A stretch of 64,000 nt of DNA, taken from IMG/VR virus record IMGVR_UViG_3300013383_000002, positions 1-64,000 of that record. The stretch is one strand, 5' to 3'. Each line of letters starts with the position of its first letter. Within the stretch, counting starts at the first letter, position 1. The position numbers and the translations under genes were made by a program. Origin of the DNA: a virus (taxonomy: Duplodnaviria; Caudoviricetes). Shown piece after piece: positions 1,723 to 50,277 of this stretch. The notes below the pieces were generated by a model. The model ran no database searches and was not told the origin of the DNA. It was given only the letters and a program-made list of their open reading frames with translations.

Positions 1723-2708
1723 TTCCTCAAATTCCTCGCCCTAAGCGTTCGTTTCTCTCAAAACGGTGCGCGCGATGCCAGGTAGAACAACCAGAAGAGG
1801 ATTTCGCTTTCACTCACAGCGAATTCTATCCCGACCACCATCTTCCACTTTGTAATTCATGCGTTACTTCGATGTTGCGCGAACACGACTTTGATTGGTG
1901 CTTTATTGATAAGTTGTGCCAATGGGCTGATATTCCATTTATTGTAAAAGAATGGGAGAGATTGCGCGAACTCAATTCTCCTGATAGCGTGTGGGCAGCT
2001 TATTCCAAAGTTTTTGCTTCGCAAGACTATGAGGGCCTTGGGTGGGACTCTTATTTCAAGCAATATCAAGAACTAAAGGCAGTCGGTTTAGTGGAAGAAG
2101 AGATTCCGCTTTTGAAGGAGAAGCATTTCGACGAGCTGCGCGCGCGGTGGGGTGCCAACTATGACGAAGATGCCCTAAATTACCTCGAAAACCTTTATCA
2201 AGGACTTCTAATGTCTCAAAACGTGGTCGGCGCACTTCAAATCGACCAAGCTCAAAAGCTTTGTAAGGTGTCCTATGAAATTGATAGTCGCATCCGCGCG
2301 GGAGATAAAGACGTCGATAAATTTATGGCGACTTATGATAAGCTGGTCAAAACAGCTGAGTTCACACCCAAAAATATAAAGAACGCGCACGACTTCGATA
2401 GCTTTGGTGAATTGGCACTTTGGCTCGAAAAACGCGGCAATCAGAACAAGTTTTATGATGGCGCGACTCGTGATGTTGTAGACGAAACAATCAAGAATAT
2501 TCAGGCATGGAATCAGCGCCTTTACGTCAACGAAAGCAGTCTTGGTGAAGAGATAACCGCGCGCCTCCAAGCTCTTAAAAACGTCCAAGAAAGCGAAAAT
2601 TTCTATGAGACAGAGCAAAAAGATTTCGACGCCGACATCTACGAAGCAGAAGTTTTCAAAGATGAAGACGAGGAAGATTTTGAGACAGAAGGGGAGATGG
2701 GCGTATGA
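1713..2708 (+). CDS. zinc-finger protein upstream of terL, candidate terminase small subunit
   Basis: CARC...CNSC, acidic C-terminus, ATGA overlap with terL; function inferred from position only. Confidence 0.5.
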   Translation: MPVIPQIPRPKRSFLSKRCARCQVEQPEEDFAFTHSEFYPDHHLPLCNSCVTSMLREHDFDWCFIDKLCQWADIPFIVKEWERLRELNSPDSVWAAYSKVFASQDYEGLGWDSYFKQYQELKAVGLVEEEIPLLKEKHFDELRARWGANYDEDALNYLENLYQGLLMSQNVVGALQIDQAQKLCKVSYEIDSRIRAGDKDVDKFMATYDKLVKTAEFTPKNIKNAHDFDSFGELALWLEKRGNQNKFYDGATRDVVDETIKNIQAWNQRLYVNESSLGEEITARLQALKNVQESENFYETEQKDFDADIYEAEVFKDEDEEDFETEGEMGV

Positions 2709-5235
2709 GTATTATCCAGTTGCGGCCGCCCACTTCGCCTTTTCTCCAAGATAACCGTATCTATCGAGATGGTGTTTTACTAGAAAAGGGCGTTGAAGTT
2801 ACTGAAGACTTTTTGATAAGAAATGAAAAGTTTTTTGCAGATTTGACACAAATCTATACCGTCTATCCCGACGTCTATTTGGACATAATTCGACCAGAAA
2901 ATAGTCAGTTTGATTTGTTCATGTATCAGCGTATTTTTCTTAGAAGTTTGATGCGCTATAACCAAGTCTACATTACAGCAACGCGCGCGGCCTCGAAATC
3001 GTTCCTTTCCGTTTTGGGAATGTTTTTACAATGCGTTTTCATTCCAGGACATAAGTGCTCACTCATTGCACCGGTCAAAACCCAAGGCGTAAAAATTTTG
3101 CGCCTCTTCTTTGTAAAAAGGAGATAAATCAGGCATCTAATTGCTGGGAAACCCTAAAAGCCCAAATGCCTTTTTTATAGGAGCAAAAGCAGAAACAAGT
3201 TTTGGGATAACCTACGGCAAAAGCCTAAGGGTATTTATAATGGGCAATCAGCAGCCAACTCTTTTTGAGAGGTTCAACGACTATCCTTCGGGAGTAAATT
3301 CTGAAACGGTGCCTTGCCTCGCGGCAAAAGATATAGTCTAATCTTATGCGAAAGCATAAGCTAATAAAATGAAAAATTTTCAAAGAAAAAATAGCCGAAA
3401 TTCTAAAGATATGGCCTCTTCTTGAAAAAGAACTCGAAGTTTTTATGGGCAAACCGCACATCAATTTATCAAAAGACGTAGGCGAAGCTTATTTCAAGAA
3501 TGGTTCATTATTCACCGTCGAAGGGGCAACAGATTCATCACGCGGCCTCCGACGTCACTCAATCTTTCTCGATGAGACACGTGACGCCGACGAAGACGCG
3601 GTTAGTGAAATCATCATCCCCCAACTAAACGTTTCGCGCCGCAACGCACTCGGCCTTGTAAACCCATATGAAGCCGTAAATCAGCAGATGATTAGTGGTA
3701 CTTCCGCAGGCACTAAATCATCCTATGCCTACGCATTACTTTGCGAGACGATGATACAGGCAATAATTGACCCCGCCCATGCTTTTGTAATGGGACTTGA
3801 TTATAGATTGCCGGCGATGCACGGCTTGGTAGACAAGGCTTTCGTCGAGCGACAAAAGTTCTCATCCTCCTACAATGAAGCAACTTTCGCAGCTGAATTT
3901 TTAGGAACTTGGATTGGCGGGAGTGATGAAGCGTGGTATGATTTTGAGAAACTTTCTAAGTATAGAAAGAAAAAAAATCCAGAGTGGTTTCAAAAGTATA
4001 AAGACGACCCGAATGTTTTCTACTTACTGTCGATAGATATAGGTAAAGGAATTTTGCCCCATTTTGTAGTAATATAAAATGTGTATCTTTCTAATTGCTG
4101 GGACACCTTCAGGGCAATCAGCAGCCAATCTACGGACGGTTCAACGACTATCTCGCAAGAGAGTAAAGGTAAGCGCCTCGAAATGGAAGATATCCTACTG
4201 GGATAATGATATAGTCTAATCTTTATGGGAACATAAAGCCCTATGGTATGAAATTAGCGACTTCATATAAATATAAATGAGATTACACGACAGCACAGTA
4301 GCAACTGTATTTCGGGTCAACAAAGTAAACGGCAAATACTATTCAACCGTTGTAAATATTTATGTCCTAGGACGTCAAGCGGAAACCAAAACTTTCTCTC
4401 AACAAGCGATTGATATCAAACTTTTGATTGAGAGATACAATCCGCGCGAAGTCCTTATAGACACAAATGGCTTAGCAACTTAGGTCATTCAAAATCCCTC
4501 TAATTGCTGGAAAGCCTTTCAAAGGTAATCAGCAGCGAAGTCGCGTTTGAGCGAAACGTTCAACGACCAACCGTGAGGTGTAGGAACAGTGTTCCGAAAC
4601 GGGGGATACTTTTAGTAAAGATATGGTCTTCTCTATATAGTGATATATAGCAGTTCATAAGAGAACGCATACGCTTACGAAACGTATGGAAAATAAAAGT
4701 AGGTCTTGGTATTGCCGACGAAATGATAAAAACCCATATCGACGGCCGCGGGCGAGAGCTTCCCGCTTACGGCTTCTTCAATAATGACGATTATAAAAAA
4801 ATCCAACCGCGTAATTGTATCCCAATTCTCTATTCAATGAAAGCCAATGGCCCTCTAAAGTCAAAAATCAATGGTAACGCTTATGCTCGTCTAAACAGTG
4901 GCTTAGTTCGCTTCTTAATATCAGAGCAAGAGGCCCGCTCTTCCCTTCTCGCGACAAAGAAAGGGCAAAAGATGAGTCTAAAAGAGCGCACAGAGCGACT
5001 TCTGCCTCATGAGAACACCACAAAGCTTTTTACGGAAATGGCTAACCTTCGAGCTAAGCAGACGGGCAATGATATCGTCCTTGAGCCGATAAACTCTCGG
5101 TTCCCCGACGATAAGTATTACTCTTTTGCTTATGGGCTTTGGCGCATCAAAGAAATAGAGGAAGAAGAACAAAAACGCCAAAGAAAACGAGGCGTTGGAA
5201 AACGTAAACTCGTATTTTTTACAGGAGGAACATAA
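2705..5235 (+). CDS. terL: terminase large subunit, spliced: join(2705..3090,3372..4044,4280..4472,4700..5235), 595 aa
   Basis: Walker A-like ATRAASKS, Walker B RGLRRHSIFLDE, nuclease motifs IDIG|R-HD, IDTNGLG and PDDKYYS; exons total 1788 nt in frame. Confidence 0.92.
3091..3371 (+). mobile_element. group I intron 1 in terL (ORF-less, 281 nt)
   Basis: P1 exon GGCGU pairs with IGS GCGCC (U.G); core AATTGCTGGGAA...AATCAGCAGC, P7 GACTA/TAGTC; ends in G; join gives GVKIFKEK. Confidence 0.92.
4045..4279 (+). mobile_element. group I intron 2 in terL (ORF-less, 235 nt)
   Basis: Same core motifs and P7 GACTA/TAGTC; exon ends in U, intron ends in G; join gives IDIG|RLHD; P1 is short (GGU/GCC). Confidence 0.88.
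4473..4699 (+). mobile_element. group I intron 3 in terL (ORF-less, 227 nt)
   Basis: P1 AAUGGCU/GGUCAUU, P10 ACUUA/UAGGU, covariant P7 GACCA/TGGTC; join gives DTNGLGLGIADEM. Confidence 0.92.
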
Positions 5236-12957: not shown

Positions 12958-14469
12958 ATGGCTGATGTACTAAGCCGCTATGGTATCAAGGAAGTTTGTG
13001 ACTTCACTCTTTATGATATCAATGACGATGGTTCTGTTGGCGCTCCTGCGCTATATCTGGATTAACAGAGTAGTCCAGAATAAATCGCGTGAATTGCTGG
13101 AAAACCCTAAAAACCAGAGAGGTATTGAACTTGAAACAAAGTGAGAATGGGCAATCAGCAGCCAAGCTTGAATGGCGGATAATTGCTGAAGATACAAATT
13201 ATATGGTTTCAAATACTGGATTAGTAAAACGAATTCAAACCAATCATATTTTATCTTTTGGAAATAAAAAAAGGTATTATACAGTAGCCTTACATAGTAA
13301 TGGCACTCGTAAAGATAGATATGTTCATAGACTTGTAGCTTTAGCCTTTCTTCCGAATCCAAATAATTTACCATATGTAAATCATCTTGACCATAATATT
13401 CATAACAATAACGTAGAAAATTTAGAATGGTGTACAAGTTCTGAAAATGCTCGACATTCATATAAAGATGGGAGACGAGCAATTGAATATCAAACAACAA
13501 GAAAAGATGTACAAAAAAAGATGGTTGATAGAGTAAAAAAACCTGTTGTTCAATATGATTTAGATATGAATTATATTACCTCTTTTGAAAGTGCAGCAGA
13601 AGCTGCTCGGCAAACAAATGTAAATGACAGAGGTATATCTTTTGTTTGTAACGGAAAAAGAAAAACAGCTGGAGGATTTATTTGGAGATTTCAAGAAGGT
13701 TCAACGACTAAGTGCTCAGAAAATCCAACTGAGACAGCGCGCGACTCTGAAACAAGAGATGATATAGTCTAATCTCAAACGAAAGTTTGAGCTTCACAAT
13801 GAAGGTTTATAAGAATTGGCTTATAAATAAATATCGATGACTCTAAAAATTTCAACCGTCGAGCAAACAGCTGATAGCACTTCTGCTCGTGGCGGCAAGG
13901 GTAATAGCGAATTGGTTATGTGGGATTTTGGTCGTGAAATCACCCTAAACCTTCAGGATGCTCTTTTCTCTGCTAAATCTATGGCAATCATGTTTGGTGA
14001 TGCTGATGGTGCTTCTGCTCCTGCTAGTGGTTCTGTGCTTCGTACTTGGAACCTAACTAAGCTTGGTACTCTTAGCGCTGCTCCTACTCAGCTAGATCTA
14101 GGCCTTGGTAAGAAGCATACTGTTTCTACTAACGCTGTTTATTATACGGCTACTGGCTCTTCTAGCTCTGAATGGAGTGCTGACGCTGTGTATATCACTG
14201 ACAAGGTTACTACCAAAGACCACACTGAAATTGTTATTAATGCTGAGACGTTCCCCGGAACTTATGCATGTATTGGCGACACTTACTGCCGTAGTGAAGA
14301 TACTGGTAACGATAGCTTCTTCCAAATTCAAATTCCAAAGGCAAAGATGCTTTCTGACGTTACTCTAACAATGGAAGCTGAGGGCGACCCCACTGTCTTT
14401 GATATGCAGATGAAGGTTCTCCGTCCAAAGAACGGCGAAATGATGAAGCTAGTCAAGTACGATATCTAA
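12958..14469 (+). CDS. major tail (tube) protein, spliced: join(12958..13062,13840..14469), 244 aa
   Basis: 35-codon exon 1 (MADVLSRYGIKEV...LYLD) with GGAGG RBS is absent from the ORF track; joins to TLKISTVEQ...ARGGKGN; strong codon bias; terminator after. Confidence 0.8.
13063..13839 (+). mobile_element. group I intron in tail tube gene (777 nt) carrying an HNH homing endonuclease
   Basis: P1 CUGGAU/GUCCAG, P10 AGAGU/ACUCU, P7 GACTA/TAGTC, P3 TCGCGT/GCGCGA, terminal G. Confidence 0.92.
13089..13772 (+). CDS. intron-encoded HNH homing endonuclease (NUMOD4-HNH-NUMOD1 type); likely start TTG 13131
   Basis: YMVSNTG, VHRLVALAF, VNHLD...NNNVENLEW, FESAAEAAR...TAGGFIW. Confidence 0.88.
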   Translation: MNCWKTLKTREVLNLKQSENGQSAAKLEWRIIAEDTNYMVSNTGLVKRIQTNHILSFGNKKRYYTVALHSNGTRKDRYVHRLVALAFLPNPNNLPYVNHLDHNIHNNNVENLEWCTSSENARHSYKDGRRAIEYQTTRKDVQKKMVDRVKKPVVQYDLDMNYITSFESAAEAARQTNVNDRGISFVCNGKRKTAGGFIWRFQEGSTTKCSENPTETARDSETRDDIV

Positions 14470-15352: not shown

Positions 15353-15367
15353 ATGCAGGAGGGAGAA

Positions 15368-18300
15368 ATGGCAGATAAAAAAGTAATACAAATTGCTTTT
15401 GACGGCGATATAGAAAAAGTATCTTCTAAAATTCAAGCCATCCAGAGCGAGCTTAGTAAACTAAGTTTGGGTAAAGGACTGAATCGCGAATTCGAGGAAA
15501 CTTTTTCTTCTTTGACGGCTGAGCTAAAAAAACTCCAAGGGCTGACAGATGGTAATAAAGTAAATTTTGTCGATGTAAAAAAGGTTGAAAAGAGTGCGGA
15601 TGCTATTGATAGACTTTATGATAAGCTGTCTCGTCTCGCAAGTTCTTCTGGAGTAAATAGTTCGCTCCTTAAAAACGATAGGAAGGCAATTGATGCCTTA
15701 GCTAGCGCGCGGACCAAGTATAATTCAATTGCCGCAAGTGGGCTAAAAGAACAACAACGTCTTCAAAAGGATTTAGCTAACGCGCAAGAAAAAACAAATT
15801 CTAAGGCTGAAAGAGCACAATTTCTTGATAATCTGCGCAAACAAACTAGCGAAGCACTAATAAATGCCCAGAAAGAATTAGCATCATTAGAAGCTCAGCT
15901 TCGGGCGAAAGGTGGAAATAATCCAACAAAATATCTAAAAACGGATGATGACGGTAACGTCGTTGGTGCAGATAAACGAACTACCTTAGGTAAACAATAT
16001 AATGCACTAAAAGAACAATTGCCTGATTTGGAAGCTGCGGCGAAAAGTGCCGAAAAAGCTGTCAAACCAAGCTTCGCGCAAATTGAAGAGGAAGCAAAAA
16101 AAATTGCGGACGGAATTGATAAGGCCAAAAAGGCTCTTGATAATTTCAATAACGCACAACCTCAAAAACAAGCAAAAGCTTTTGAAGAAGTCCGTCAAGA
16201 ACTTGAAAAAATTGGCGGAATTGACTGGAAATCTCTTGGTATTGACCTTAACAGCATTAATAATATTGATGAGCTAAATAATAAGCTTTTGACTCTTTCC
16301 AATGATGCAGGTGTTCGCGCGCGACAAGTTCTTGAAAATATCCGAAACGCTAGTTCTGAGGGAGCGGAACCACTTAGAATTTTGGGTCAAAATGCTCGAG
16401 CTGCGGGACAAGACGTGCAAGAGCTTACAGATAGACAAAAAGATATTCAACGCCTAACCGACCAACTAAAAAACTTTTTCTCAATCTCTAACTCTGTTCA
16501 ATTGTTCAAACGAGCAGTTCGTTCTGCTTTTGAAACAGTAAAAGAACTTGATAATGCGATGACTGAGATTGCGGTGGTTTCTGATTTCTCTGTTAGTGAT
16601 ATGTGGGAAAGACTCCCAGAATTTACTGAACAAGCGAATGAGTTAGGCGTAGCCATCAAAGATACTTATAACGCAACTACTCTTTTTGTCGAACAGGGCT
16701 TGGATTTACAGCATTCAGTAGAACTCTCTACTGAAACCTTAAAGATGGCTCGTATTGCTGGTATGGAAGCCGCGGACGCAACCGACGCAATGACAAGCGC
16801 CCTTCGCGGATTCAATATGGAATTAAATCAAACTTCAGCACAACGTGTCAATGATGTTTACTCAGAGCTGGCAGCAATGTCCGCTTCTGATGTCCAAGAG
16901 CTTTCTACTGCTATGTCTAAGACTGCTTCTATTGCTCATAACGTCAATATGGAATTTGAGGCAACAGCGGCGTTCTTAGCTCAGGGTATTGAAAGCACTC
17001 GTGAAAGTGCAGAAACCATTGGTTCAGCTCTCCGTACAGTAATCGCTCGTTTCTCGGAGGTCAAGTCTCTTTATTCAAAAGGTGAAATTACTGGCACCGA
17101 TGAAAACGGGGAAGAAGTCAATGTCAATAAAATTCAAAAGGCATTGCGTTCTGCCGGAATTGATATGACAAAATTTTTTACAGGAGAAGAAGGGCTTGAC
17201 CAAGTTTTCTTGGAGCTTTCTCAGAAATGGAATAACTTAGACGTAACGGTCCAAAGATATTTGGAAAAGTATCTTAATCCATTGAATTGCGGGAAATTCC
17301 TTAGAGTTTTAGTAACCAAGCATATTTTATGTGGCGAAGGTAATGACTGAGGTATGGTAAAATCACTAAAAATTGGAAAATCCGCAACGAAGCTTCTATA
17401 AAAAGAAGAGCGTTCAACGACTATCGAAAGCAATAAAAATAAGGTAATTGAAAAATTACACGAAGCAAGTAGAGTAGAGAAATCGAAGCGATGGACAGAT
17501 TTGAAAAAGAATCTGATGATATAGTCTATTCCTTTGCGAAAGTAAAGGTAGTAAAGATTTCAACTGTGGCGGCCGGCAGTAGACGAGTTCAAAGTTGTCC
17601 ACTGCTTTCTGCGGCCTAATAATACAGATAGCTAAAAATCCTCTTAATTGCGGGAATATCTATCAACTTTTCAATAACCAAGTATAAATAGTAATATTTA
17701 TGTGGCGAGGGTAATGACTGAGGTATGGTAAAATCATTGAAAGGGGACAATCCGCAACGAAGTTCCCATATTGAGGGAGAACGCTCACAGACTATCGAAA
17801 GCGGTAAGATAAGGCGATTGGAATGTCGCACGAAGCGAGTAGAGTAGAGAAATCGAAAGAGAGGACTTCTTTTAGAAGAAAATATAGTCGATGGTATAAA
17901 AATGACTATTTTTATATTAGAACAGAGCCGGTTTATTTCCATGATTAACAACTACTCCCGCACTATGGAGTTAGTAAACGCAGCAAACAATAGTGCAGGC
18001 GCAAGCCAAGAACAATACGAAAAAACTCTTGAAAGTCTTCAAACAAAACTTGCCAAGTTGAAAAATGCTTGGGATGAATTTGTAATGGGACTTTCTAATA
18101 ATGAAGTTATAAAAGTAGCAGTAGACGCCCTAACAAGCCTACTTCAAACAATTAATAAAATTATTAGTTCTCTTTCTGGTGGAAATGGTCTTATAAAATC
18201 AGTCCTTTCTATGGGAACGGCAATCGGTGGCCTAAAGTTAGGAAAATCTATCATTAACTCTCTTATTGGAAACATGGTAAACACAAGAGAGGGTGGGGTT

Positions 18301-21300
18301 CTTTCTAATATTTTTGGGACGAAAACCGCTCAACAGAAAGCTGGACTTCAAACGGGTAAGAATTTCCTTTCTGGGTTTTTAGACGCAATAAAGAATAAAA
18401 GTCTGCCTAAAACAGACTATATTATTTCTGATTTTTCAAAAAATTTGACAAGTGTTTTTAAGAGTAATGAATGGAATTTCGATTTTTCAAACGCAAAACC
18501 CGAAGGTCTTACACACTTTAAAGAAAATATCACAAAGACTTTGTCACAAGGCGACGACGCCTCCAAAGCTCTTTCTGAGCAATTCTCTTCCCTCTGGGAT
18601 ACAAAACAATATAACGAAGCAATTACCATTCTTGAAAAAGCTGGAATTCAAATAAAATTGACCGGCGAAGAAGCCCAGCAAATGGGTCTTTCTGTATCAA
18701 AGACCGATAAAGATTTTAGAACCATGGCCGTTGCGGCAGGAGTGGCAGCAAGTGCTCTAATGGGATTGGCTACTATTCTGGATAATAATGAAAAGGATAA
18801 AGCAGCCAGTATTATTCGTGGTATAGCTACTGCTCTAATGGGTCTTATTCCCATCATTACAATGGTACAGACTGCAATGATAACTGGCGCCGAGAGTGTC
18901 TCTGTAGCTATCAAAAATATTCCAATTATTGGATGGATTGCCGCGATTATTTCTGCTGTAATTTCTCTTATTCAAATTTTTTCACAATTTGCTCCAGAGA
19001 CTCAAGCAGAAAAGACAGAACGTTTAGCAGAGCAAACCCAAAAAGCAACAGAAGCAGCAAAAGCAGCGCAACAAGCTTACTCCAATTTGGTTGAAAGCTT
19101 TGACAAATATGGAGAAGCTGTTGATAAAATCAATGATTTGACAGTTGGAACTACAGAATGGAAAAATGCACTTCTTGATGTAAATAATCAAGTTTTGGAA
19201 CTCTTGGATAAGTATCCTCAATTAGCATCTTATTTGACTTCTGAAAATGGTGTATTAGGAATTTCAGAGGAAGGTATCCAGAAGGCTACAGATATTGCAC
19301 AAGAGCAAGCACGTAGAGCCCAAGCCTTATCCGTTACGAGTCAGTATGCTGAAACAACCAATCAGAGAAGAATTGCTCAAGAAGCATATCAACAAAACTT
19401 CTGGTCTTATGACCAATATACTGGTAATGTTATCACAAACCCCGAAGCAGCAAAAGCTTTTTCAAATTATCTCAAAGAAAATCCAGATATGACAGCCGAA
19501 GATTTTCGGACTTTGGCTGGAGGCGCAGGGGAAGAACTCTCCAAATTGGCTGATATTACTGGCCTTACTGTCAATCAAATGGCGGATTTAGTAGATATTA
19601 CTCATTCTTATAATAAAGATATGGTAGCTTATGGCCTTCAAGAAGAAAATTACCGTAATGCTTTGGGAGTTTTAGCGGGGGATGTTTCTTCTAATAAACG
19701 TTGGAATATGGTTACTCAAATGTTTAACCTGGATGAGACTGCTTCTGAAATAGACGCCGCGCGTGATAAATTGGATACGACAATTTCTAAAATGGCTCAT
19801 GATTTGAAAGATCAAGGCTATACAAATATTATGGATTTGACCGGAAGTGACGCCACTTACCGTCAAGTTTATGAAGCCGTTACAGGTCAAAGTTCAGAGG
19901 GCATTGATATCGACAGTATAAAGGATTATATAGCTCAATTCCAAGTTTTGAATGGCCAAGTTGAAGAAGCTACTCCTATTTTGAATAAATTGAATTCTAT
20001 GGAGAATCAAGACCTAGCTGATGAAATTGCTGGACGAATTGCTGGTGGAACTGGCCTAACGCGAGCTCAAGCAGAAAAACCACTTACAAAAGCTGACTTG
20101 CAGGAAATGGCATCTCAAATGGGATATGCTAATGTCGATGAAATGGCAAAAGCTTTTGGATTTGATGATTGGACGGCTCTTTACAATCAGTGGTCACAGG
20201 ACGCTGCTTCAACTGCTCCACAGTTTGAGGAAAGGGAAGCAACTGCTGCTAATGTTATTGGTCAAAATCAAGTAGAAAAAGCAAGCTCTTTGATGGGAGG
20301 TAAAGACCTCCAAACCTACTCTAACTATCTTGAACAATTAGCTACTCTTTATGCTAAAGCGGGGGTAAATGGCGCGCAAGCGGTTGATTTGTTCCAAAGT
20401 TCTTTTGAAGCTTTGATTTCTAATAATCCTCAGTATGAGAAAGAAATCAAAGATATTATTGGAATGACCGACCTTTCTGACTATGACAGTGTCGAAGCAG
20501 CAATTTCTGAGATAAAAGAACTTATTCCTGGAGTTGGAGACGAACTCAATAATTTTGAGACAGCTCTTATTCAACTAGGTAAGGCCACTAAAAAAGTCAA
20601 CTTGAAAACCACAATGTCTGATTTGACTTCGATGTTAGACTTAGCAGATGAGATTTCTTCTCGCTCTCGTTCCGAAGGTATTACTCAAGACGAACTAGAA
20701 CAAATTGTATCTAGTGGTGTTGCTGACTACTCTGATTTTATGTTCACGGGTCAGGAATTTGTTCCAGTGACTTCTACTATGGACGACCTGGCCGAAGCAG
20801 TGCGCGCGAACACTCAAGCCGCTATTGAGAATACTTTAGCGCTTTTGAAGCAAGCAATTAGTGAAGGCGAATATGTTGAAGAAATGTTCAATCAAGAGGA
20901 ATCTTGGAAAGGAATTTCTGACGAGCAAAAAAATCGAATTCTAAGCGGAGAAGCTAGCGCGACGCTTGATGCGAACGTAATTCGAGATGTTCTTCAATTA
21001 GACAAGACTGCTTCTACGGAAGAGGTTATGTCTAAATATCGTGCTTATATGCCAGATTATTTGAATTTAGCTGATAATCGTTCTCAAGCAGAAAATTATC
21101 AAAACTATATGAACCAGGCAGCCGCTTGGAACACCGACGCACAAAATCTCCTGCTACAAGGGAATACAGATGTTCTTGATGATATTGTCAATGCTCGCGA
21201 ACTTTCTGGAACCGTTGAAAAACTAACGGATGATTATGAAGCCAATACAGAAAACGGCGAAGCTAATTCCGACATGATGAAAACTCAAGGTGTTCGGTAT

Positions 21301-23841
21301 ACAGAGAACGAGAAAAAAATCAAAAAACTTTGTGAAGGTATTGAAGACGTAAAGGATGCTTTTGACAAAGGAACTGAAGCTTTAGCCAACGGTGAGACTC
21401 CTGCTGACGATTATTGGCAAGCTCTTTCTAAAATTGAGAGTAAAGGCCGCCAAGTCTTTGGGGAGAATTTTACTCAAGATTTCATCCAGCAAAATGCTGA
21501 TTTGATTTCTCAGTTGACCGAAGGCGGAGAAGCTGGCGAGCAAGCTTTTATTTCCCTTCAACAAAAGATTTCTGAAGCCACTCAGAAAGCAGTTGAGGAT
21601 TTGACCTATTTTGATACTAATCTTCAACAGATCAGAAGCGTACTTGATGGACTCGATGGAGTAAAAGCCGAGTTCAAGGTCAATGGCACTGCTGATGTGT
21701 CTCAATTAGTTCAGCAACTAATTCTTGCGGGTAACACTGCGGCTGAGGCCGCGCGGATTGTTGAATCTTTGACAGGTTCAACTGTTACTTATACTGTTGA
21801 CTGGCAGTGGGTTACTCTTCCTACTTCGTTAGCAATGAGTTCCACTTATGCCGGTCTTGAGAAGGCAGGCGCGAGTGGCGGTTTTACTTCTGTAAAAATT
21901 CCTAAAGTTATTCAGGCAGTTGGCACAAAAAATAATTATAGCGGCTCCGGATACTCCGGTTCTTCTAGCGGAGGCGGCGGAGGAGGAGGAAGTTCTTCTA
22001 AAGATACCGTTTGGGAGAATCCTTATGATAAGCTTTATAATTTGACGGAGCAAATCAATGAGGCTCTACGTCAGCGCGAAAAACTTGAAAGAGAGTATGA
22101 CAGAATTCTTGAGCGCAGAGGCTCGACTTTCAAAGAACTTCGTGCGAACTACAATGCTCAAGTCAAGTCTCTTGAAGAAGAAATCAAACTCCAAGAGAAA
22201 CTGCGTGCGGGTCGTAAGGGACAGCTTGATGCGATTAGTAATGAAAAATATACAGATAGCGAAGGAAATCGTAAGACGTTCGCGCAGACCGGAGCAACAA
22301 AATATGCACGATATGACCAGAATCTAAACCGCATTATTATTGATTGGAATGCTATTGATATGATTACTGATGATGACCTTGGTTCTGCGGTTGAGGCTTA
22401 TATCAGTCGTCTTGAGGAGCTCCAAGATCAATTTGAAACTACAGATGAAACTATTGAAAATATGAAAGATACTCTTGATGAGTTGCGTAAAAGTCAAATG
22501 TCTGATTATCTTGATTTTGAGCAAAGTGTTTATGATGCCCTTGTAAACGCTCAACAAAAGCTTATTGACGAATATCAATCTCTATCTGATAGTATTGCTG
22601 ATTCGAATTCCAAAATTTTGGAAAATCTCCAAGAAAGTATTGACTTAGAGCGTCAAATTAGAGACAACACAAAGACAGAAGAAGATATCAATGAGAAAGA
22701 AGCTCGTTTAGCTTTCTTGCGACGTGATACTTCAAACGCCAACGCTTTAGAAATCAAAAAAATGGAAGAGGAATTGAGCGACGCTCGTGAAAATTATTCT
22801 GATAGTTTAGTTGACCAACAACTTGAACGCCTTACTCAACAAAATCAAGATGCACAAGAGGCACGTGAAAAGCAAATTGAACTTATGCAAGCTCAACTTG
22901 ATTATGCTTCTGAGAATGGCGAATTCTGGAATAGAGCCTATGAATTGATAAATGAAGGCTTCGCGGCAGATGGCTCTCTCAATCAAGCAGCTCAATTATG
23001 GGAACTCCTCAAAGCTGATGAAGGCTGGAATGGTCTAAGTAAATTCGGCCAACTAAATTGGCAAGAAGAAATTTCTAAGGCGATTATCGCTGCCAGCCAA
23101 GGCTATGCTAACTGGAACATGTATAAAGCTGAACAAGTGGACAAGTCTTTGGTTCTACCAGATGGAACTTTATTGACTTATGATGGGAAGCAATGGAAAG
23201 ATAGTAATGGCAATGTTTATAATGGAATTGATTTTGATTCTAATAAAAATCAATTTACCTATGGTTCAATTGATTATGCTACACCACCAACACCAGGAGG
23301 GGGCAGTACCGGTTCATCTAGTGGAGCCGAGAAGAAAGAAATTTCTGTTGGCAGCACATTCAATGCTACTGGTGCTCCTATCTATCCATATCCGGGCGGC
23401 TCGGCTCAGCGGCAATATTTTGCTAATGACCCTTACTATGTAGCAATTGGTGAATCTGGCGATTATTGGCTTGCTCGTTGGCATGGAGCTTCTTCTGGCT
23501 CAACTGGTTGGTTCAAGAAAACAGATGTAAAGGCATATAAAACTGGCGGCTTAGCTGATTTTACTGGGCCAGCATGGCTTGATGGAACTAAATCTCGCCC
23601 AGAATTGGTTCTCAACGCCAAAGATACTCAGAACTTCCTTATTTTGAAAGATATTCTGGGTTCTGCTGTTAAAAACGCTGGAACAGCAACAAACGGTGGA
23701 GATAATTATTATGATATAAATATTTCTGTCGATGAAATTGCTTCTGACTATGATGTTGACCAACTAGCGCGTCGTGTTAAGGAACAAATAGTCGAGGATA
23801 GTACGTATCGTAATGTCAACGCAATAAACTTTATCAGATAA
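15368..23841 (+). CDS. tape measure protein, spliced: join(15368..17260,17557..17584,17921..23841), 2613 aa
   Basis: Long helical protein with a TP901-type TMP core (ELDNAMTEIAVV...ESAETIGSALRT), hydrophobic segments and C-terminal YKTGGLADFTGPAWLDG; exons total 7842 nt in frame. Confidence 0.88.
17261..17556 (+). mobile_element. group I intron 1 in tape measure gene (ORF-less, 296 nt)
   Basis: P1 AAGAUAU/GUAUCUU; AATTGCGGGAA...AATCCGCAAC; P7 GACTA/TAGTC; terminal G. Confidence 0.9.
17585..17920 (+). mobile_element. group I intron 2 in tape measure gene (ORF-less, 336 nt, predicted C-G 5' splice site)
   Basis: P1 GCAGUAGAC/GUCCACUGC, P10 GUU/AAC, same core as intron 1; join gives AAGSRQQSRF. 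Confidence 0.82.
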
Positions 23842-41570: not shown

Positions 41571-42699
41571 TTATAAACATCTCCTTTTCATAGTGGACAG
41601 AGATTGTCTCGTAGAACATCTTGAAAAGTTCATAACTCTTTTCACGAATATATATAAAGCTTTTCCGATTTTCTTCAAGGGAAGTTTTTGGAGAGAGAGA
41701 TTTCTCTGTAAAAATTGGACCAGAATTATACTGAGATTTTGCTCTTAGGTAATAATATAATGTGGTCAGTTTTCTATCTTGGCTTTTTTGAAAAAATTCA
41801 TTCCAAAGTCGAAAAAGGTTTTCTAACTCTTGTGAAAATGGAGATTCTCTACCAAGAGTAAGTAGAAAATTTATCTTATGAGTAGATAAGTATAAACACT
41901 GTCTGTATACAATAGGTAGTGTTTCTAGGATTTGTTCATCACAAGATATTGTGGAGAACGGATTGTATATAATCTTCCGTGCAGTTCTAGCAGGGATATC
42001 ATCACATAGTTCTTTTACCATTTTATCAGGCATCAGGCCTTCATATTGAACTTGGAAAATACCTGAAAGAGGCGGAAGACTAAGCCATTCATAGAGTTTT
42101 TCTTTTGTGCTTACAATTGGCGGAAATTTCATCCCAATTGGCAGCACGTGAATTTTTTCAGGATTATTTACACCAAAACGAGAATTAGATAACTCTTTCA
42201 GGAAACTAACAGCTCCTTCAACTTGTCCAAGGTTATAATCATGAAGAATAATACCTGATGTTTTTGGAAGAATCTGCGCTTTGAGTTGCTTTTCCACAAA
42301 GCTATCAATACCATGGCCTTCACGCGAAAGACGTCCATGTCCTGCGCGTAAAATCCTCTTAAAAGTAGCCTCATCTGCTCCAAAGTAATCTTTATACTTT
42401 TCATATGGAGAGAAGTCTGGAATGACGCTCTCAATTTCTTTTGAAAAAGGAATATAGTTTTTTGATGATACAGCGCGGCCACCATATTCTACATTAGGCA
42501 AGAAAAGTTCCTTTGGATATAACTTATCTTCATAATCTTTTCTTACAAAAAAAGAATTATAGCGCTCTGGCTCCAAAATAGGAGCCAAAAGCGTTATGTC
42601 TCTTTTCTTTTTGTAATAAGCAAGGAGCTTCGCGCACTCAAGATTAGGCATCACATTCCAATAATGAAAAAAATCATAATCATGAATTCCAACTATCAT
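41563..42699 (-). CDS. hypothetical protein
   Basis: 378-aa ORF coupled to dnaE. Confidence 0.7.
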   Translation of the reverse strand: MIVGIHDYDFFHYWNVMPNLECAKLLAYYKKKRDITLLAPILEPERYNSFFVRKDYEDKLYPKELFLPNVEYGGRAVSSKNYIPFSKEIESVIPDFSPYEKYKDYFGADEATFKRILRAGHGRLSREGHGIDSFVEKQLKAQILPKTSGIILHDYNLGQVEGAVSFLKELSNSRFGVNNPEKIHVLPIGMKFPPIVSTKEKLYEWLSLPPLSGIFQVQYEGLMPDKMVKELCDDIPARTARKIIYNPFSTISCDEQILETLPIVYRQCLYLSTHKINFLLTLGRESPFSQELENLFRLWNEFFQKSQDRKLTTLYYYLRAKSQYNSGPIFTEKSLSPKTSLEENRKSFIYIREKSYELFKMFYETISVHYEKEMFIND

Positions 42700-45600
42700 T
42701 CGTCTAACTCCAATCTTGGACGCATTTTTATTTTACCGTCTGGATAAACTTCTTCAATTAGTTCACAAAGATGATAAGGTGTTGCTTTGTATTTCTTCGC
42801 GCGGAAACTATCACCATCGCGGATGCCGCATACTACAATTTTATTTCCGCGCGCGAACATTGATTTCTCAATTACGTGTTTTTTATCATCCGCACCTTTT
42901 TCAGAAATTTGGCGGTCATAGATATTAAAAACTTCACCAAAAATCTTTACAGTCACAACGCCTTCTGGGGTCAAAAGCGTCACCAGTTTCTTCATCTTAT
43001 CGCGGTCGAGAACCGTTCCATAGATACGATGAATTTTGAAGATTGGAACGCGTTTACCTTTGATTTCAAAAACACGTTCAATTTCTGGCTCTTCTGGCAA
43101 CTCAAAGAAATTTGAGAAGCCATAATAAGTGTTATTGACGCGCGCGAGTTCGTGCTCATGGAAATAACAAGAAACGCTATCCATCTCCCATTTACTATTA
43201 TTGCCGAGACAATACTTATTCCAAACATCTTCGGTCAATCGCTTATTTACTGCTTCAAGAAGTTCTTGATTATGGGCTTTTACGTAAGGGCGAACCTTAT
43301 CCATTACTCCATCATAGATCTTCTTCCATACTGTTTGCTTTATCGCAAAACCACTTTCCGCGCGAACGTCCTCAATCAACTTATCAATTGAAAAGTTCTT
43401 ATCAAAAAAGGCCATTGCGATATTATCCAAAAGAAATAAATCATCAACTTTGAATGTTTTTAGATACTTGTTGAAGTTGAAGACACGACAAACAAAATTA
43501 TATTCGTTTGGAATAAGTCCAAAATCAATCAGCATCTTCATATTTTGGAGAGTAATGCGCTTCTTCGCGTCACTAATTATGTTGACGTATTCGTGCATTA
43601 CCTGTTCGCGCGGGCCGAAGCTATCAAAAGCCCCGCACTTTATGAGGTTTACCATTTGAGGTTTATTGATTTTTACTTTGGAGAGGAAGTCGGGGATTGA
43701 GGTGTAAGGACGATTTTCGATTATTTGTTTTACGATATCTTGACCAACTTTTGTAATACCGTTCATGCCAAATCGAATAACTGAGTTTTCAACATCAGGA
43801 GAGAAGGTAAAAGTAGATTTGTTTATATCTGGTGGGACTACCGTAATTCCCGCAGATTGCATTTTTCCAAGCGCCGCGGCAATTTTACCGTAGTTACTTA
43901 CTTTTACTTTTTTCTTCTTTTTAGCTGTTGAAGTTTTATTAGTCTCATCCTCGTCCTCTTCATCTTCTTCGTCGTTGTCATTGCCGAATTCTTCTACACA
44001 ATCGATATATTCTTCTATGGTAATAGTTTCTTCACTTTCATCATCATCTTGTTGCTCGTTGCCGCCACTATCACTAATTAGACAAGCGCAATTCCAAAAT
44101 ATAATTGGAAAGCGATAAGCTAAATTCATTTCTTGTAGGGCTACAAGAGAATATGAAAGAGTGTGCGCACGACAACCTACCGCATATAGTTTCCTATACC
44201 AGATTACTCTGTTGCGGTCTGGACTATACCATCAATTTCATTGTTTCTAATGAAAAAGTCCTTATTATAGTCTCTGAACGTTTTTCTTATTTCGGTGTAT
44301 TTTCTATTCATACCAAAAGGTTTATTATAAACTATAGCAATTAATTTTAGAATATTGAATTGATTAGCCGTTTCAATTCTATATAAATTTCTTCGGTTTT
44401 TCTTGTATGTAAATCTTCCATAAAAAAATTTACTGTTAAAACTTTTTCAATCCTTTTAATAAAGTCAATGGATGCAGAAACTATATAAAATTGAGCGCCG
44501 CCATAAGAGGTTTTGCTAACACAACCATCACCATCTATTATACCACGAATGATATAAGGTAAATATTGTATTTCTTGCTCATAAAGTTGTGGTGCTGGTA
44601 TAACATATGTTTATTTTTATTAAACCATAACGCGCAACTTCGGCCTGAACGCCCGGTCTATTTATCAATACCCTGTATCTTGTTTGCTTTCCAGCTTGAG
44701 GATAGGCTTTATAAGTTGTACCAATTCCTTTAGCTACGAAAGCAATAACATCTTCGTCTACCATATCCAATCCTATACCATCTCGGTCACTTAATAAGTA
44801 TCCATCTGTAAGCATTAGTCCGATTAGATATGCGTCAAACGGGCTTTTAATTTCAGATAATGAATAAGTATATCCTCGACGATTATCTTGAGCCTGTTGT
44901 ATAATATTTTGATATTCGTTCGGATAATATTTCTTTACTTTATCGGTTATAGATTTTTTTTGTCTTATAACCGTACCAACTCATTAGTTCTGAAACTGAC
45001 GCGCCATTCTTGTATTCTTCAACTAATTTTAATTCATCTTCTTTTGATATTTTTGATAACCCATAGTATATCCCTCCTAAAAACAAATAGCCCCGTTTGA
45101 ATAGGAATACACTAAAATAAGAAATTTCGCTGCGGATTATCCAATTCTAAATGATTTTACTGTACCTTCTCTCTTTCTGAGAAGCCACGATATTATCACT
45201 AATATCGTTTAGTTATTTAGACTCTAAGAAACTCCCCGCAATTTCAAGGATTTATACTCGTCTTGTATCAGTTAAACGAGTATCCGCGCTGGACTCTCAA
45301 AAGCACGTCCCAAACATAATGAACAAGCTTCATATCGCAATTTTTTTCTTGAGCATTTTCAAAATAAGCCTTTTCGCATTCGTCAAAAAGTTTACCTTGT
45401 TTTTTTGAGATAGCCTTGCGACATTTGTCTGCAAAAGTTAGATTATTACCGCCAAGTCGTTCTTCTTGTAGAAGCTGCATCATTCCCTCTTGGCTTTCGC
45501 AAATGCCATCGGTAATAGCGTTATGTGACATTAGCCAATCTATATTGGCCTGGCTTAGACCATATACTCGCATCTCTCGCTCCCATTCAACGATATTGGA

Positions 45601-48600
45601 GCGATATCTTGCCCACATATCAAGAGGCTGTTCAGCGCCTTTTTCTGGAGCCATAAGTCGAATAACAGAGTTCAAAACAGCCAATTCACTAACACTCTTA
45701 GGATGCGTTAGTGCGATGCCATTGATACCACTTTGTTTTTCCATCTGGAAAAGACTTGTAATTTTATGCTCCCAAACCATTTGCCACATCTCTGGGGCGG
45801 TGCGCTCAAGATTATAAATTCCGATAGCCTTTTCGTAAGTTTCTCGTAACGTCGCCTCGGGCTTGATATAGCCATATTCTACCAATAAGTCTAATTCGTT
45901 ATGAATTTTATCTAGGGCCTCAATCGATAACATATCAATCTTGATAAGAGACACATCTTCGCAATCGTGTAGCTCAAAAGCTGTAATAATTGTTCCATCG
46001 GGCGCGCGCATCAAAGCAGTGGAATTGGTGAATGGTTCATCAACAAAGATGACCCCACCTGCATGAATGCCAACTCCGCAAATCAATCCTTCAATCTTTG
46101 AGGCAACTGCCCAAACTTCTGGATAATTCTCTGTCATTTCATAGACGAACTGTCTGATTGGCTTAAAGTCTTTTTCTTCGTCGCCATTCATACATTGTGA
46201 CAAAGTCCGTAATTGTCCTCGGTCAGCTGGAATTAGTCCGGCCAGGTAAGAAGCAATATCAACCTCAATATTGAGGCCGCGACAGTTATGAGATACTATA
46301 TTGTTTAATAAGTAGTTGTGGGCTGAGGTTTCTAAACAAAAAACCTCACCTTTATACTGCTCTTTGGTAATATTTTTGATTTTAATTGGATAATATTTTT
46401 TACCGTCATATTCTATCGGTTTTTGATATTCCCAACCTAAATCTAATGAATGTAAATATTTACTATTATATAAACATTTTGCTGTTTTACCATAGAACAT
46501 TAGATTATAAACAATCTTTTTTTGAGAAGATCGGTTATCTTCGGTAATAACAGGACAGTTATAGCCATTATTCGCTGCAATTTGCCATAGGTCTGTTATG
46601 AGTTGGTAAGATACCGAGGTAATTTTCCCTTCATAACTATAATTTTTTCGTTGCCTGCCATAACCATCTCCGTAATAACAACCATATAGAGTATAAAGTT
46701 GTACCTTAGCGGGTAAATTTTTAATAATACCAACTGTCTTTTTATCACATTTACCGGGAAAATATCTATTGAAAAAACGTCCTAATGGAGTAGAATTCAC
46801 TTGTATTGATAATCCGTGGCTTTCTTGCTTTGGTAAAATGCAAAGATTTTTCTTTTCTATTCCAAAAACATTTTTCAGCAGATAAATAATACGTTCCTTT
46901 AGCCAATTTTCTTCTTGATGAATAGTAAAAGTTATACCATGAAGCTTATGATTGATATTACCTTCAGCCAAATAGATGCCAATAAGCTCACAGAATTCTT
47001 CATCTAGTCGAACTTTATCTTTTATATAAATAACTGACTTATGATAGGGATTTTGTTCTTCGTAAGGAAAAAAGATATAATCCTCAGTATCTTTTTTCTG
47101 ACCATAAATTGGAGATAATAGAAAATCTGTTTCATGTATATCTTCTGCCGTCAACCACTGAACTTGATGATTTTGAATGATAGGACATTCAATAATAGAA
47201 TAGCCATTAACAGCCTTATACTTATACATTGAATTAAAACTACCATTGTATTTATCAGCATAATATTGAGACGCTTGTTTAATACTAGTAAAGGTACCAA
47301 GAACATTACCATAATTATCAATTAGCTGACACTCTTTATAATTTTGACATTTATTTTTTTCTTTCTTTTTACGATTAGTATATACTAGCAATCGATGATT
47401 GTGAGTTACGCTAAAGGGAAGTCCTATACCCGCCGTATCAAAAGTATATAATTCTCCATTGTATTGTCGGTGAGTTGGGACGAGAACCCTTTGTAGTCCT
47501 TCTGTGGTATTTACCATATCTTCGGTAGAAATTTTTTCAATTTCCTTTAGGCCAAAAATAGTATTAACTACAGTTCCGGGTTTTAGACAGGCGGATAAAA
47601 TTGCGGACTTGGATTTTTCAGTCTTGAATGTCGCTACATTGGACACTCTATCTTCACCGTAGAAATCACGAAATTTTTGAAGAACTTGCGCGCGCTTACT
47701 CCCTTCAATATCCGTGTCGCAATCAACAACCGAGGCGCGGTCAGGGTTCAAGAAGCGCCAATGGAAAACCTTTGTTTCTTCAAGAAGTGGGTTTATTTGA
47801 GTGATTCCAAGAACATATAATAGAACAAATCCTGCGCCAGAACCACGGCCAGGGCCGACGAGAGAACCAGCTTCCCAACATAAATCAATATTCTTTTGAA
47901 GGTTTAGATAATATGCGGACCAATGGGCATTATTCTTGATAGAGGAACGCCAAGTATCATCAAGACAAACATTGATTTCTTTATAGGCCTCATCTGTTTG
48001 AAGCCCACGCCGAGTTTTTATTCCATCAATGACTGCCCAAACGAGTTGTCTATCACCGATGTAACTAGAATTATAAAAAGTTTCAAGAAGTGGAATCTTT
48101 TCCCTATAAAAAAGATATTCATCTTCATTTTTAGGATACTCATACCATTCTAGTTCTGGAATTTTTAGTGGCTTTAACAGGCTATAATCTTCACAGACTT
48201 CTCTAATCTGAAGAATATTCCTATAAGCTTTTTCTAATTGTTCTCTTGAAAAATATCCAAAATAACTTTCAAGCTCTTTCGTATTCATCATATACGTAGA
48301 CGCATAAAAGTCATCAACTTCACGGTCACCATTTTGTGCATTTAGATATGCTCTATGGATGGCGCGGTCTTCTTTCTTTAGATAGTGACTATCAGTCGTA
48401 ATGATATAAGGAATATCTAATTCTTCTGAAAGTTCAAGGAGTTGCTGGTTTACATAAATTTGGTCTTTATTATGACTGGGTTGCATTTCAAAAAAGAAAT
48501 TACCATGGCCAAATAGGTTATCTAGTTGACTAATCCAGTTATAAATTTTTGGTAAAAGTTCTGGTTCAACTTTCGCATGAAGAAGCTGAGTAGGAAGGCA

Positions 48601-50277
48601 GCCACCTAGACAGTTATGGACAATAACATTTTCACATTTAAAGGAGTGTGTAGTATTATTTAGACAATAAACTATTTCATTCATCGTAATCTTTGTCTTT
48701 GACTTTATTCGTACTTTTCGATACCAAGTATTATCAATGAAAATATAGTCAGTCTGTTTTATAGTTTTAGCTTGTGAAAAAATTTGACATACTTCTTGAT
48801 GTGAATAAGCCTGTAATTTTTTTATTACACCCAAAATACTATTACTACCCTCCACATACCAAGCATTTTGATGATGAACCCCATCTTTGCCAGTACGTAC
48901 CTTAGCTAGAGAAATCCCTGAGGTGATATGTAATTGATTTAGAATTTCATAAATATCATAAGATAATTGTTTGGAAATAGAGGCGCTAACAAATTCTCCG
49001 CAAGCATATTTTACAAGATTACCAGGTTTTCTAATTCGAAAATATCCATCAGCCAAGAAATATCCAAAAACTAATTCATAATCAAGTTCTTCAGAAATTC
49101 TAAGGCGTTCTGGAACTTTTTTTGTATCAGCTTTTACATCTCCGAATAAATAGAAAAATAAATCAATAAATTCTCTACTTGAACATGAAATATCTACTCG
49201 ATGATTATCTGGTCGTGCAGATACAGACCATTCAATACCTAATTGCTGACTTGCTGGTAAAATAAAAGAATTGTAATAAATAGGAAATTCTTTTTCATTG
49301 AAAGTAAACTTTATATTTGGATTCTTTTTTAGTGTGATGCATCCATCTCCTAAAAATAAACCGAAAAGTCGCATCAACTCAGGTGTTATTTCTATTCTAT
49401 CGGGTAAAATATATTTCTTATAAGATAATTCCGAAGAAGACCAAGAGTGTAAAAATTCAGTTTTTTCTATAAAAGGGCTACTTTTATAGTCGTAAGAACA
49501 GGGCAGTAAGCACATATGCTTAGTCCCACCCTTTTTAGTAATAAGTTCTTCAGCTGAGACCCATCGAGGAGTTTTCTTATTATTACTAATGACTAAAAAT
49601 TGATGATTACCAGTACAATAGATAGGTGAAGGATTACCACCTAAAATAATTTCGTAGCCATCGCCAATATAATTTCTACTAGTCGGCTCAATTACTTTTT
49701 CCCATTCTCCATAACGATTTATAACAAGGTCGCCTGACTGTATATCTTCAATATTTTTCCAGCCCTGCCTAGTTTCAATTTGAGTACCAGCTCGAAAACA
49801 CGCTGTCGAACCAATAACATGGCCGGGATTAGCGCCAATAATTTCAAATAAATCGTTATAATAGGTTGGAACGCGTCTCATGCCCCGCGCCATATAACTA
49901 CGAAGCCATGCACGAGTAGAAAGTTCTCTAATTTGTTGATGTCCAATTGCGTCTTTTGCCAGGAGAATAAAGTGATAATACTTATCTTGACCCGCTTTAT
50001 AGTTAGACGCGTTGAGGCCATTACGGCAGAGATAGATTTCGTTTCCTAAAATAAGTTTGAAGTCTGGATTCTTTTCTTTTATCTTTTGGTAATATTTTTC
50101 CGCGCGGACTGCGCCAGAGACGGTTTCATGGTCAGTAATGGCTACTACTTGGTGCCCTAGTTCAATCGCATAATTGATTAAGTCTTCGGTCTTGATGATA
50201 CAGTCACGGAGACGCTCATTTGACCAGTCAAGGTGATTATGCAGAGAACCAGGGTAACTTAGTTTTCGTTCGTCCAT
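42696..50277 (-). CDS. dnaE: DNA polymerase III alpha subunit (family C), spliced: complement(join(42696..44175,45275..50277)); 2160-aa precursor with two inteins
   Basis: PHP motifs LHNH, AITDH, TTDSHY; GPGRGSGAG; DCDTD; GIHAGG; KIDML; GYSF|CRAH restored by splicing. Confidence 0.93.
44176..45274 (-). mobile_element. group I intron in dnaE (1099 nt)
   Basis: P1 AUACUCGUU/GACGAGUAU, P10 ACAA/UUGU, AATTGCGGGG...AATCCGCAGC, P7 GACTA/TAGTC, terminal G. Confidence 0.92.
44290..45064 (-). pseudogene. frameshifted LAGLIDADG homing endonuclease inside the dnaE intron
   Basis: RBS and ATG at 45064; YLIGLMLTDG and IIRGIIDGDG motifs lie in different frames; several indels; 3' end approximate. Confidence 0.8.
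46285..47589 (-). mobile_element. intein 2 in DnaE (435 aa) with LAGLIDADG domain
   Basis: A|CLKPGT...THNH...LIGIYLAEG...GCYYGDG...VSHN|C. Confidence 0.93.
48613..49800 (-). mobile_element. intein 1 in the DnaE PHP domain (396 aa) with LAGLIDADG domain
   Basis: STA|CFRAGT...TGNH...LFGLFLGDG...GYFLADG...IVHN|CLGG. Confidence 0.93.

Follow-up and report, generated by a model that had tools for sequence, protein, structure and literature searches.

How does a phage come to have its tape-measure gene split into two open reading frames (ORFs), with a conserved 28-nt stretch left between two inserts, and which protein does such a gene make? We asked this of a 64,000-nt window, the opening part of the 121,436-bp record of an uncultured phage that has direct terminal repeats (IMGVR_UViG_3300013383_000002; Caudoviricetes), in which the tape-measure protein (TMP) gene starts at position 15353; coordinates refer to the plus strand unless stated otherwise. 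Before splicing, the locus offers one ORF of 665 aa (15353-17350) and one of 1979 aa (17902-23841) with ~660 nt between them that hold no credible ORF. An earlier note on this DNA, drawn from the letters alone, had placed a 28-nt micro-exon between two introns at this point. Judged from its sequence, the tape-measure gene really is cut by two related group I introns, 28 bases apart. Very probably it is a three-exon TP901-type TMP gene in which two paralogous selfish introns occupy separate homing sites, the micro-exon being leftover host gene.

Exon 1 (15353-17260), defined by its ORF and translation, holds 636 codons and ends ...VQRY, with T17260 as its last base (...CAA AGA TAT). It is followed by intron A (17261-17556; 296 nt, phase 0), the micro-exon (17557-17584; ATTTCAACTGTGGCGGCCGGCAGTAGAC), intron B (17585-17920; 336 nt, phase 1) and exon 3 (17921-23841). 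The micro-exon encodes ISTVAAGSR plus the first base (C) of Gln646, and by translation exon 3 supplies the remaining AA of Gln646, 1972 codons and the stop. Joined, the three exons form a 7857-nt coding sequence with one stop, at its end, and translate into 2618 aa, which bears out the in-frame join VQRY-ISTVAAGSRQ-QSRF proposed in the earlier note. A search limited to longer proteins gave 120 uninterrupted homologues (2535-2813 aa, with 73-90% identity across the query region), and the junction region (...WNNLDVTVQRY/ISTVAAGSR/QQSRFISMINN, slashes marking the splice junctions) aligns to every one of them without gaps. Their motif across both junctions is QRYIAT[QML]A[AS]GSRQQSRF, and a one-base move of either junction alters invariant residues. 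The exon boundaries are therefore unambiguous, and the coordinates first given for the 28-nt exon are exact. The absence of an I.T.AAGSRQQ segment from homologues had been named beforehand as evidence against the arrangement; the homologues carry I[AS]T.A[AS]GSRQQ here. For comparison at the DNA level, we mapped exons in 26 related TMP loci from IMG/VR, which with the window make 27 genes, and in 17 of these the micro-exon is contiguous with its flanking exons.

Profile matches in exon 1 place the protein in a family. PF10145 covers residues 426-632 (profile positions 2-190 of 201; 81.1 bits, cut-off 33.2) and TIGR01760 matches over profile positions 8-226 of 349 (60.4 bits, cut-off 28.8), both matches stopping short at the end of the first ORF and of exon 1. 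By these profiles the window TMP belongs to the TP901 family of tape measures, as which its homologues are also named. In one uninterrupted homologue (P0003), PF10145 spans residues 422-635 and runs through the first junction (the two junctions correspond to 631/632 and 640/641). The search for cultured relatives gave little: megablast of 16500-18700 against 50,697 phage records found no match, and tblastn returned only ~26%-identical TMPs from Enterococcus, Bacillus and Psychrobacillus phages, all uninterrupted at this place, so the phage has no cultured close relative. Antisense ORFs across the introns (111 and 70 aa) gave no Pfam match.

The arrangement is not an assembly artefact, because a single DNA contig spans both introns and the micro-exon in each of three runs (X1, X2 and X4). 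Four DNA runs of one study, possibly done on the source samples, have contigs over the stretch, with word depths of ~6-43, which fits a replicating phage. Run X4 carries a variant of this phage that differs by three substitutions, at 17683 (T>C), 17808 (G>A) and 17918 (T>C), all within intron B and none elsewhere in 16800-18400.

Are both inserts group I ribozymes? The Rfam model RF00028, with a gathering score of 50 bits, recognizes intron A at 17192-17548 with 65.8 bits (E 6e-16), above that score, and matches intron B at 17587-17914 with 36.8 bits (E 3e-7 in a 2.2-kb search, 9e-6 window-wide). Intron B is assigned to group I because its core is 78% identical to that of intron A and compensatory pairs are present, its Rfam score being below threshold. 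The identity of 78% applies to the core from P3 to P3' (group I helices are numbered P1 to P10); in the 5' parts (P1, P2) and 3' parts (P8, P9) it is 41-50%, and intron B has an extra P2-like segment. On this pattern, introns A and B are paralogues. The Rfam alignments show P3, P4, P6, P7, P8 and the ...AUAUAGUC motif, with GACUA/UAGUC as the P7 strands. The minimum free energy (MFE) fold of intron A, with a z-score of -2.67, recovers P1, P3-P6, P8 and P9. Covariation supports the shared architecture: P3 reads UCCAUUG/CGAUGGA, UCCUCU/AGAGGA or CUCCGUG/CGCGGAG, and a consensus fold (alifold) of five family members contains 82 pairs, 14 of them compensatory, in P3, P5 and its extension, P6 and P7.2. 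Some ~60 nt separate GACUA from P3', and they include at least one hairpin that covaries (alignment A2 columns 254-269); the presence of a hairpin at this point, between P7 and P3', suggests the phage-typical subgroup IA. Both introns end in G (G17556 and G17920), as do the related introns of L005, L007, L009, L018, L022 and L030. Searching with an exact core word of 27 nt was uninformative, the only hits being two unrelated loci (L003 and L004).

The window's introns carry no ORF and are for that reason unable to home alone. Their relatives tell more about how such introns move. Both sites are filled in 2 of the 27 genes (the window and L005), only site A in one (L007), only site B in seven (L006, L009, L013, L018, L022, L029 and L030) and neither in the remaining 17, which include L008 and L010. 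In close relatives whose identity to the window is 86-94% over this TMP segment, L008 and L010 among them, one or both introns are missing and the TMP is uninterrupted. A pattern search for the double arrangement returned only the L005 contig from IMG/VR and a single metagenome contig (L032), 99% identical to L005. Long introns in L005, L006, L007, L013, L018 and L030 contain HNH_3 ORFs with NUMOD4 or NUMOD1; these endonuclease-bearing introns are undetected by Rfam and were recognized by alignment once the ORF had been removed. The HNH ORF lies in P6 at site A of L005 and L007, where the intron is a 1162-nt version, and at site B of L018 and L030, and it lies after P3' in L006 and L013. Several of these ORFs are preceded by motifs that, by eye, resemble promoters and Shine-Dalgarno sequences.

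Endonuclease ORFs together with presence/absence polymorphism at fixed sites mark the family as mobile introns. Because HNH-bearing versions occur at both sites in relatives, we regard the introns as selfish mobile elements, not as a host regulatory device. Each would be an independent selfish element whose site is filled or empty on its own in related phages, and the micro-exon would be a by-product, a stretch of host gene lying between homing sites 28 nt apart and no evolved module.

The adjacency of two paralogues also invites another origin, in which one of the introns, B (or A), is a local tandem copy of its neighbor within the gene and did not home into a pre-existing second site. In favor of exchange between copies, the P7.2 region of intron A (17455-17500; AAGGTAATTGAAAAATTACACGAAGC) recurs unchanged in the site-B introns of L009 and L022, and it differs from that of intron B in the window and of the introns at site A in L005 and L007; the family is thus mosaic, which suggests recombination between copies. 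However, each site is filled alone elsewhere (A in L007, B in seven loci), an endonuclease-bearing version of its own exists for each site, and in both introns P1 and P2 are site-specific. Any duplication and retargeting must for these reasons predate the genomes at hand, and we consider a local duplication unlikely. Homing of two related introns into separate sites remains our preferred account of how the introns came to lie side by side.

If both inserts are to be removed, each needs its own splice-site pairings, and the earlier note had argued that the micro-exon must act as P10 partner for one ribozyme and P1 partner for the next. Both roles can be assigned. The P1 hairpin of intron A (17254-17275) pairs exon AAGAUAU (17254-17260) with GUAUCUU (17269-17275), giving the standard cleavage site U17260.G17269; it was read from the sequence and recovered in the MFE fold, and its GAUAU/GUAUC pairing recurs at site A of L005 and L007. 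P10 of intron A joins UUUCAA (17558-17563), at the start of the micro-exon, to UUGGAA (17261-17266) in 6 bp including one G.U, and in L007 one of these pairs is altered on both sides (G.U to C-G). The RNAduplex energy of this P10 is only -2.9 kcal/mol.

Intron B uses the other end of the micro-exon. The exon strand of its two-part P1 (17571-17584) covers the last 14 nt of the micro-exon and forms 13 pairs, 17576-17584 with 17597-17605 (A17581 and C17600 being mismatched) and 17571-17575 with 17612-17616, with an RNAduplex energy of -20.9 kcal/mol. This P1 is fully paired in the eight distinct sequences found among nine site-B introns (104 of 104 cells). It includes four compensatory pairs, and none of 500 shuffles reached the observed covariation score; when the partner strand was slid as a control, pairing fell to 22-64%. 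P10 of intron A and P1 of intron B occupy opposite ends of the micro-exon, seven nucleotides apart, so the two pairings, which use different parts of the exon, are not mutually exclusive.

The cleavage site of a group I intron is nearly always U.G. At the 5' splice site of intron B the pair is C17584-G17597, invariant across the eight distinct sequences at site B, in a P1 that otherwise covaries. The insertion point splits the invariant Gln646 codon behind its first base (C/AA or C/AG in every allele), and the C is forced by coding, since a U in its place would give a UAA or UAG stop. We considered a U.G pair at U17580 instead and rejected it: this base pairs with an A in P1 and is a C in L005; other junctions for intron B were tried as well, and none gives back SRQQ. 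The C-G pair makes intron B less typical, still within the group I class. Hur and Waring reportedly described, in 1995, mitochondrial group I introns, said to be fungal, with C.G at the 5' splice site, which would be a rare precedent.

Under the preferred three-exon reading, TMP expression would require exact splicing by both ribozymes to yield a single 2618-aa protein of the TP901 type. The two endonuclease-less introns, which resemble subgroup IA in having extra hairpins between P7 and P3', would sit at the C-terminal edge of the PF10145 domain. Intron A would leave by way of its U.G P1, its 6-bp P10 to the micro-exon start and its terminal G17556, and intron B by way of its 13-bp two-part P1, its C-G cleavage pair and its terminal G17920. 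Being transcribed first, intron A could leave before intron B is complete. From what is observed in the anatomy, the homology, the pairings with their covariation and the population polymorphism, we infer that both introns are spliced in vivo, and in that order. Several points concerning intron B and its site weigh against so smooth a picture. The Rfam score of intron B lies under the gathering threshold, and the z-score of its MFE fold (-1.40) is not significant by itself. Its P10 comprises only ~3 bp (GUU 17594-17596 with AAC 17921-17923), and a C-G pair in place of U.G should slow the first step, as known from work on the Tetrahymena ribozyme. The site-B introns of L006, L013 and L029 are without P9 and without a terminal G, so that not every member of the site-B family appears obviously competent for splicing. 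These inserts (L006 3090-4368, L013 3000-4619 and L029 4316-5086) end ...AAAAGTCGATTTA/AGCAA, and no G stands before the junction that would restore SRQQSRF. In L029, moreover, the HNH ORF of the insert is decayed and the P7' strand altered.

Such doubts would be sharpest if the introns were dead, so that the phage made two proteins, a 665-aa N-terminal one and a C-terminal one from ATG 17902, or had a defective genome. That ATG does start the 1979-aa ORF in the frame of exon 3, and intron B does score under the Rfam threshold. Yet no Shine-Dalgarno sequence is evident upstream of 17902, the ATG is not present in L005 (AAAATAGCT), and all uninterrupted relatives make one protein. The micro-exon would go untranslated, yet its conserved codons are kept, and both cores retain P3-P9 with compensatory changes between the copies, which points to selection on RNA structure. 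We find two separate proteins or a defective genome barely credible.

What would follow if splicing failed? As the earlier note predicted, unspliced RNA encodes a short N-terminal product: translation runs into intron A and meets its first in-frame stop, a TGA, at 17348-17350, giving the 665-aa ORF (15353-17350) that ends YLEKYLNPL...GND*. Skipping the 28-nt exon does shift the frame, to ...QRYNRAGLFP*, again in agreement with that note. If intron B alone is retained, the frame ends at the tandem stops TAA TAA (17617-17622), right after the intron B P1, and TAATAA is invariant in all nine site-B introns.

Every failure of splicing thus truncates the TMP, and on this ground the earlier note proposed that splicing efficiency could set the ratio of short to full-length TMP. 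Incomplete splicing or exon skipping would then make a set amount of a ~640-665-aa TMP, in the manner of the G/GT tail-chaperone frameshift. Slow splicing could conceivably come from the C-G site and weak P10 of intron B, and exon skipping between tandem phage group I introns has been documented, in Twort orf142 (PMC3073962) and in a SIOphi gene (PMC11878797). If it held, truncated TMP arising through retained introns or a skipped 28-nt exon would be the ribozyme equivalent of programmed frameshifting. The evidence from the locus itself runs the other way. A short isoform is not a conserved need, because the TMP is uninterrupted in 17 of the 27 loci and in 120 full-length proteins. The read-through tail is also not conserved, with 29 intron-encoded residues in the window versus 5 in L005 and L007, where a TAA lies at +16. 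Nor does the P10 segment of intron A have a partner adjoining the 3' splice site of intron B: the one skipping-type P10 that we found, UUGGAA with UUUCCA (-6.1 kcal/mol), lies ~14 nt inside exon 3, away from the splice site, and was rejected. The early in-frame stops in intron B resemble ribosome blocks that shield folding more than the design of a product, and the early in-frame stops as a whole, the invariant TAATAA among them, fit a habit of phage introns, seen in those of Bacillus cereus, of halting ribosomes before the catalytic core (PMC2504315).

Exon skipping is possible in principle and would here yield only truncated protein. Nothing points to a regulatory role for the double introns; the claim that splicing efficiency sets the product ratio is unsupported, and the uninterrupted relatives and the unconserved read-through tail count against it. 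We judge such a role quite improbable. A more specific version is that the site-B family, with its C-G pair, two-part 13-bp P1 and weak P10, splices slowly or needs prior removal of intron A, and that the resulting reproducible fraction of truncated TMP serves tail assembly; this seems to us very doubtful. The mechanism favored here is ordinary double occupancy by selfish introns, and no new kind of system.

How does the locus compare with known systems? The closest likeness is in prophages of the B. cereus group, where TMP-IVS1 and TMP-IVS2, 80% identical to each other, are IA2 group I introns in the TMP gene (Tourasse and Kolsto, 2008; PMC2504315). Their P3-P7 core is conserved and P1, P2, P8 and P9 are fitted to two different sites, and most are ORF-less with stop codons early in the intron (PMC2504315). 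The window shares with them a TP901-like TMP host gene, a shared core and divergent ends, which is a likeness of pattern. In contrast to the window, where both sites are filled 28 nt apart, PMC2504315 lists no gene with IVS1 and IVS2 together (E33L has IVS1 and IVS3a, KBAB4 has IVS2 and IVS3), and it describes all its TMP introns as being in frame, unlike intron B of the window, which is in phase 1 with a C-G splice site. Table 3 of the same paper includes, among BLASTN matches, an intron of Lactobacillus phage JCL1032 whose host gene is given as 'TMP'.

The TMP gene of Vibrio phage ICP1 consists of four exons separated by three introns, with splicing to full length demonstrated by RNA-seq and reverse transcription PCR, and its HNH-3 content differs from isolate to isolate, the splice junctions staying the same (Barth et al., 2023; PMC10448857). 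Several neighboring introns in a TMP gene and a variable HNH content are common to ICP1 and the window. Unlike the window phage, ICP1 infects a Gram-negative host; its TMP is distant and was not retrieved by tblastn, too distant for its intron sites to be mapped onto the window TMP, and its splicing is experimental where ours is deduced from sequence. Twort, a phage whose hosts are likewise low-GC Gram-positives, resembles the window in that one of its tail structural genes contains tandem group I introns that are paralogues, and short internal exons make skipping possible; it differs in that another gene is involved and skipping was observed, while skipping here is hypothetical. Small exons between phage group I introns, with exon skipping, were described for Bastillevirinae and Twort in 2025 (PMC11878797), where such an exon, like the one in the window, lay between two group I introns, found there only by read mapping; the introns of that study colonize nucleotide and DNA metabolism genes and terminases, not the TMP gene as here. 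Mitochondria, too, reportedly have micro-exons that lie between group I introns (PMC5436844). TMP introns and tandem introns are thus already published, for B. cereus prophages, ICP1 and Twort, and the window is a further example.

What the locus adds is of modest scope, the C-G splice site and a clustering of insertion sites being its points of interest. Inserts occur in relatives at four further TMP positions, after residues 449, 479, 546 and 560 in the numbering of the window protein, and Rfam finds group I matches of 68-82 bits at the 449 and 479 sites. In locus coordinates these inserts lie at 1114-2501 in L008, at 1492-2501 in L009, L010, L013 and L022, at 2791-3755 in L030, and at 2833-4057 in L028 and L029. 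With sites A and B included, this phage clade has an intron hot spot in the PF10145 domain of its TMP, where six insertion sites fall within ~200 codons. The site-B introns are a natural, covariation-supported family with a C-G cleavage pair held by coding, suited to the study of how loss of U.G is tolerated, and sites A and B together make a well-resolved case of paralogous introns retargeted to neighboring sites, with natural population data. There is also a practical side. Gene callers give two ORFs, of 665 and 1979 aa, and lose nine conserved residues where the true product would have 2618 aa, and the correct TMP length matters for the prediction of tail length.

Other parts of the window also contain group I introns. 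Three, at 3081-3360 (83.2 bits), 4035-4238 (91.9 bits) and 4402-4650 (80.1 bits), split a gene at 2705-5235 into four ORF pieces, with an internal exon (4239-4401) of only ~163 nt. A further group I match, a weak one at 13587-13791 (33.8 bits, E 7e-5), lies upstream of the TMP gene; it falls between ORFs 13089-13772 and 13837-14469 and is probably an intron in a tail gene. On the minus strand, a short match at 45123-45167, 80% identical to the intron B core, lies in a ~1.1-kb gap between ORFs 42696-44129 and 45268-50277 of that strand, and may be another member of the intron family that Rfam missed.

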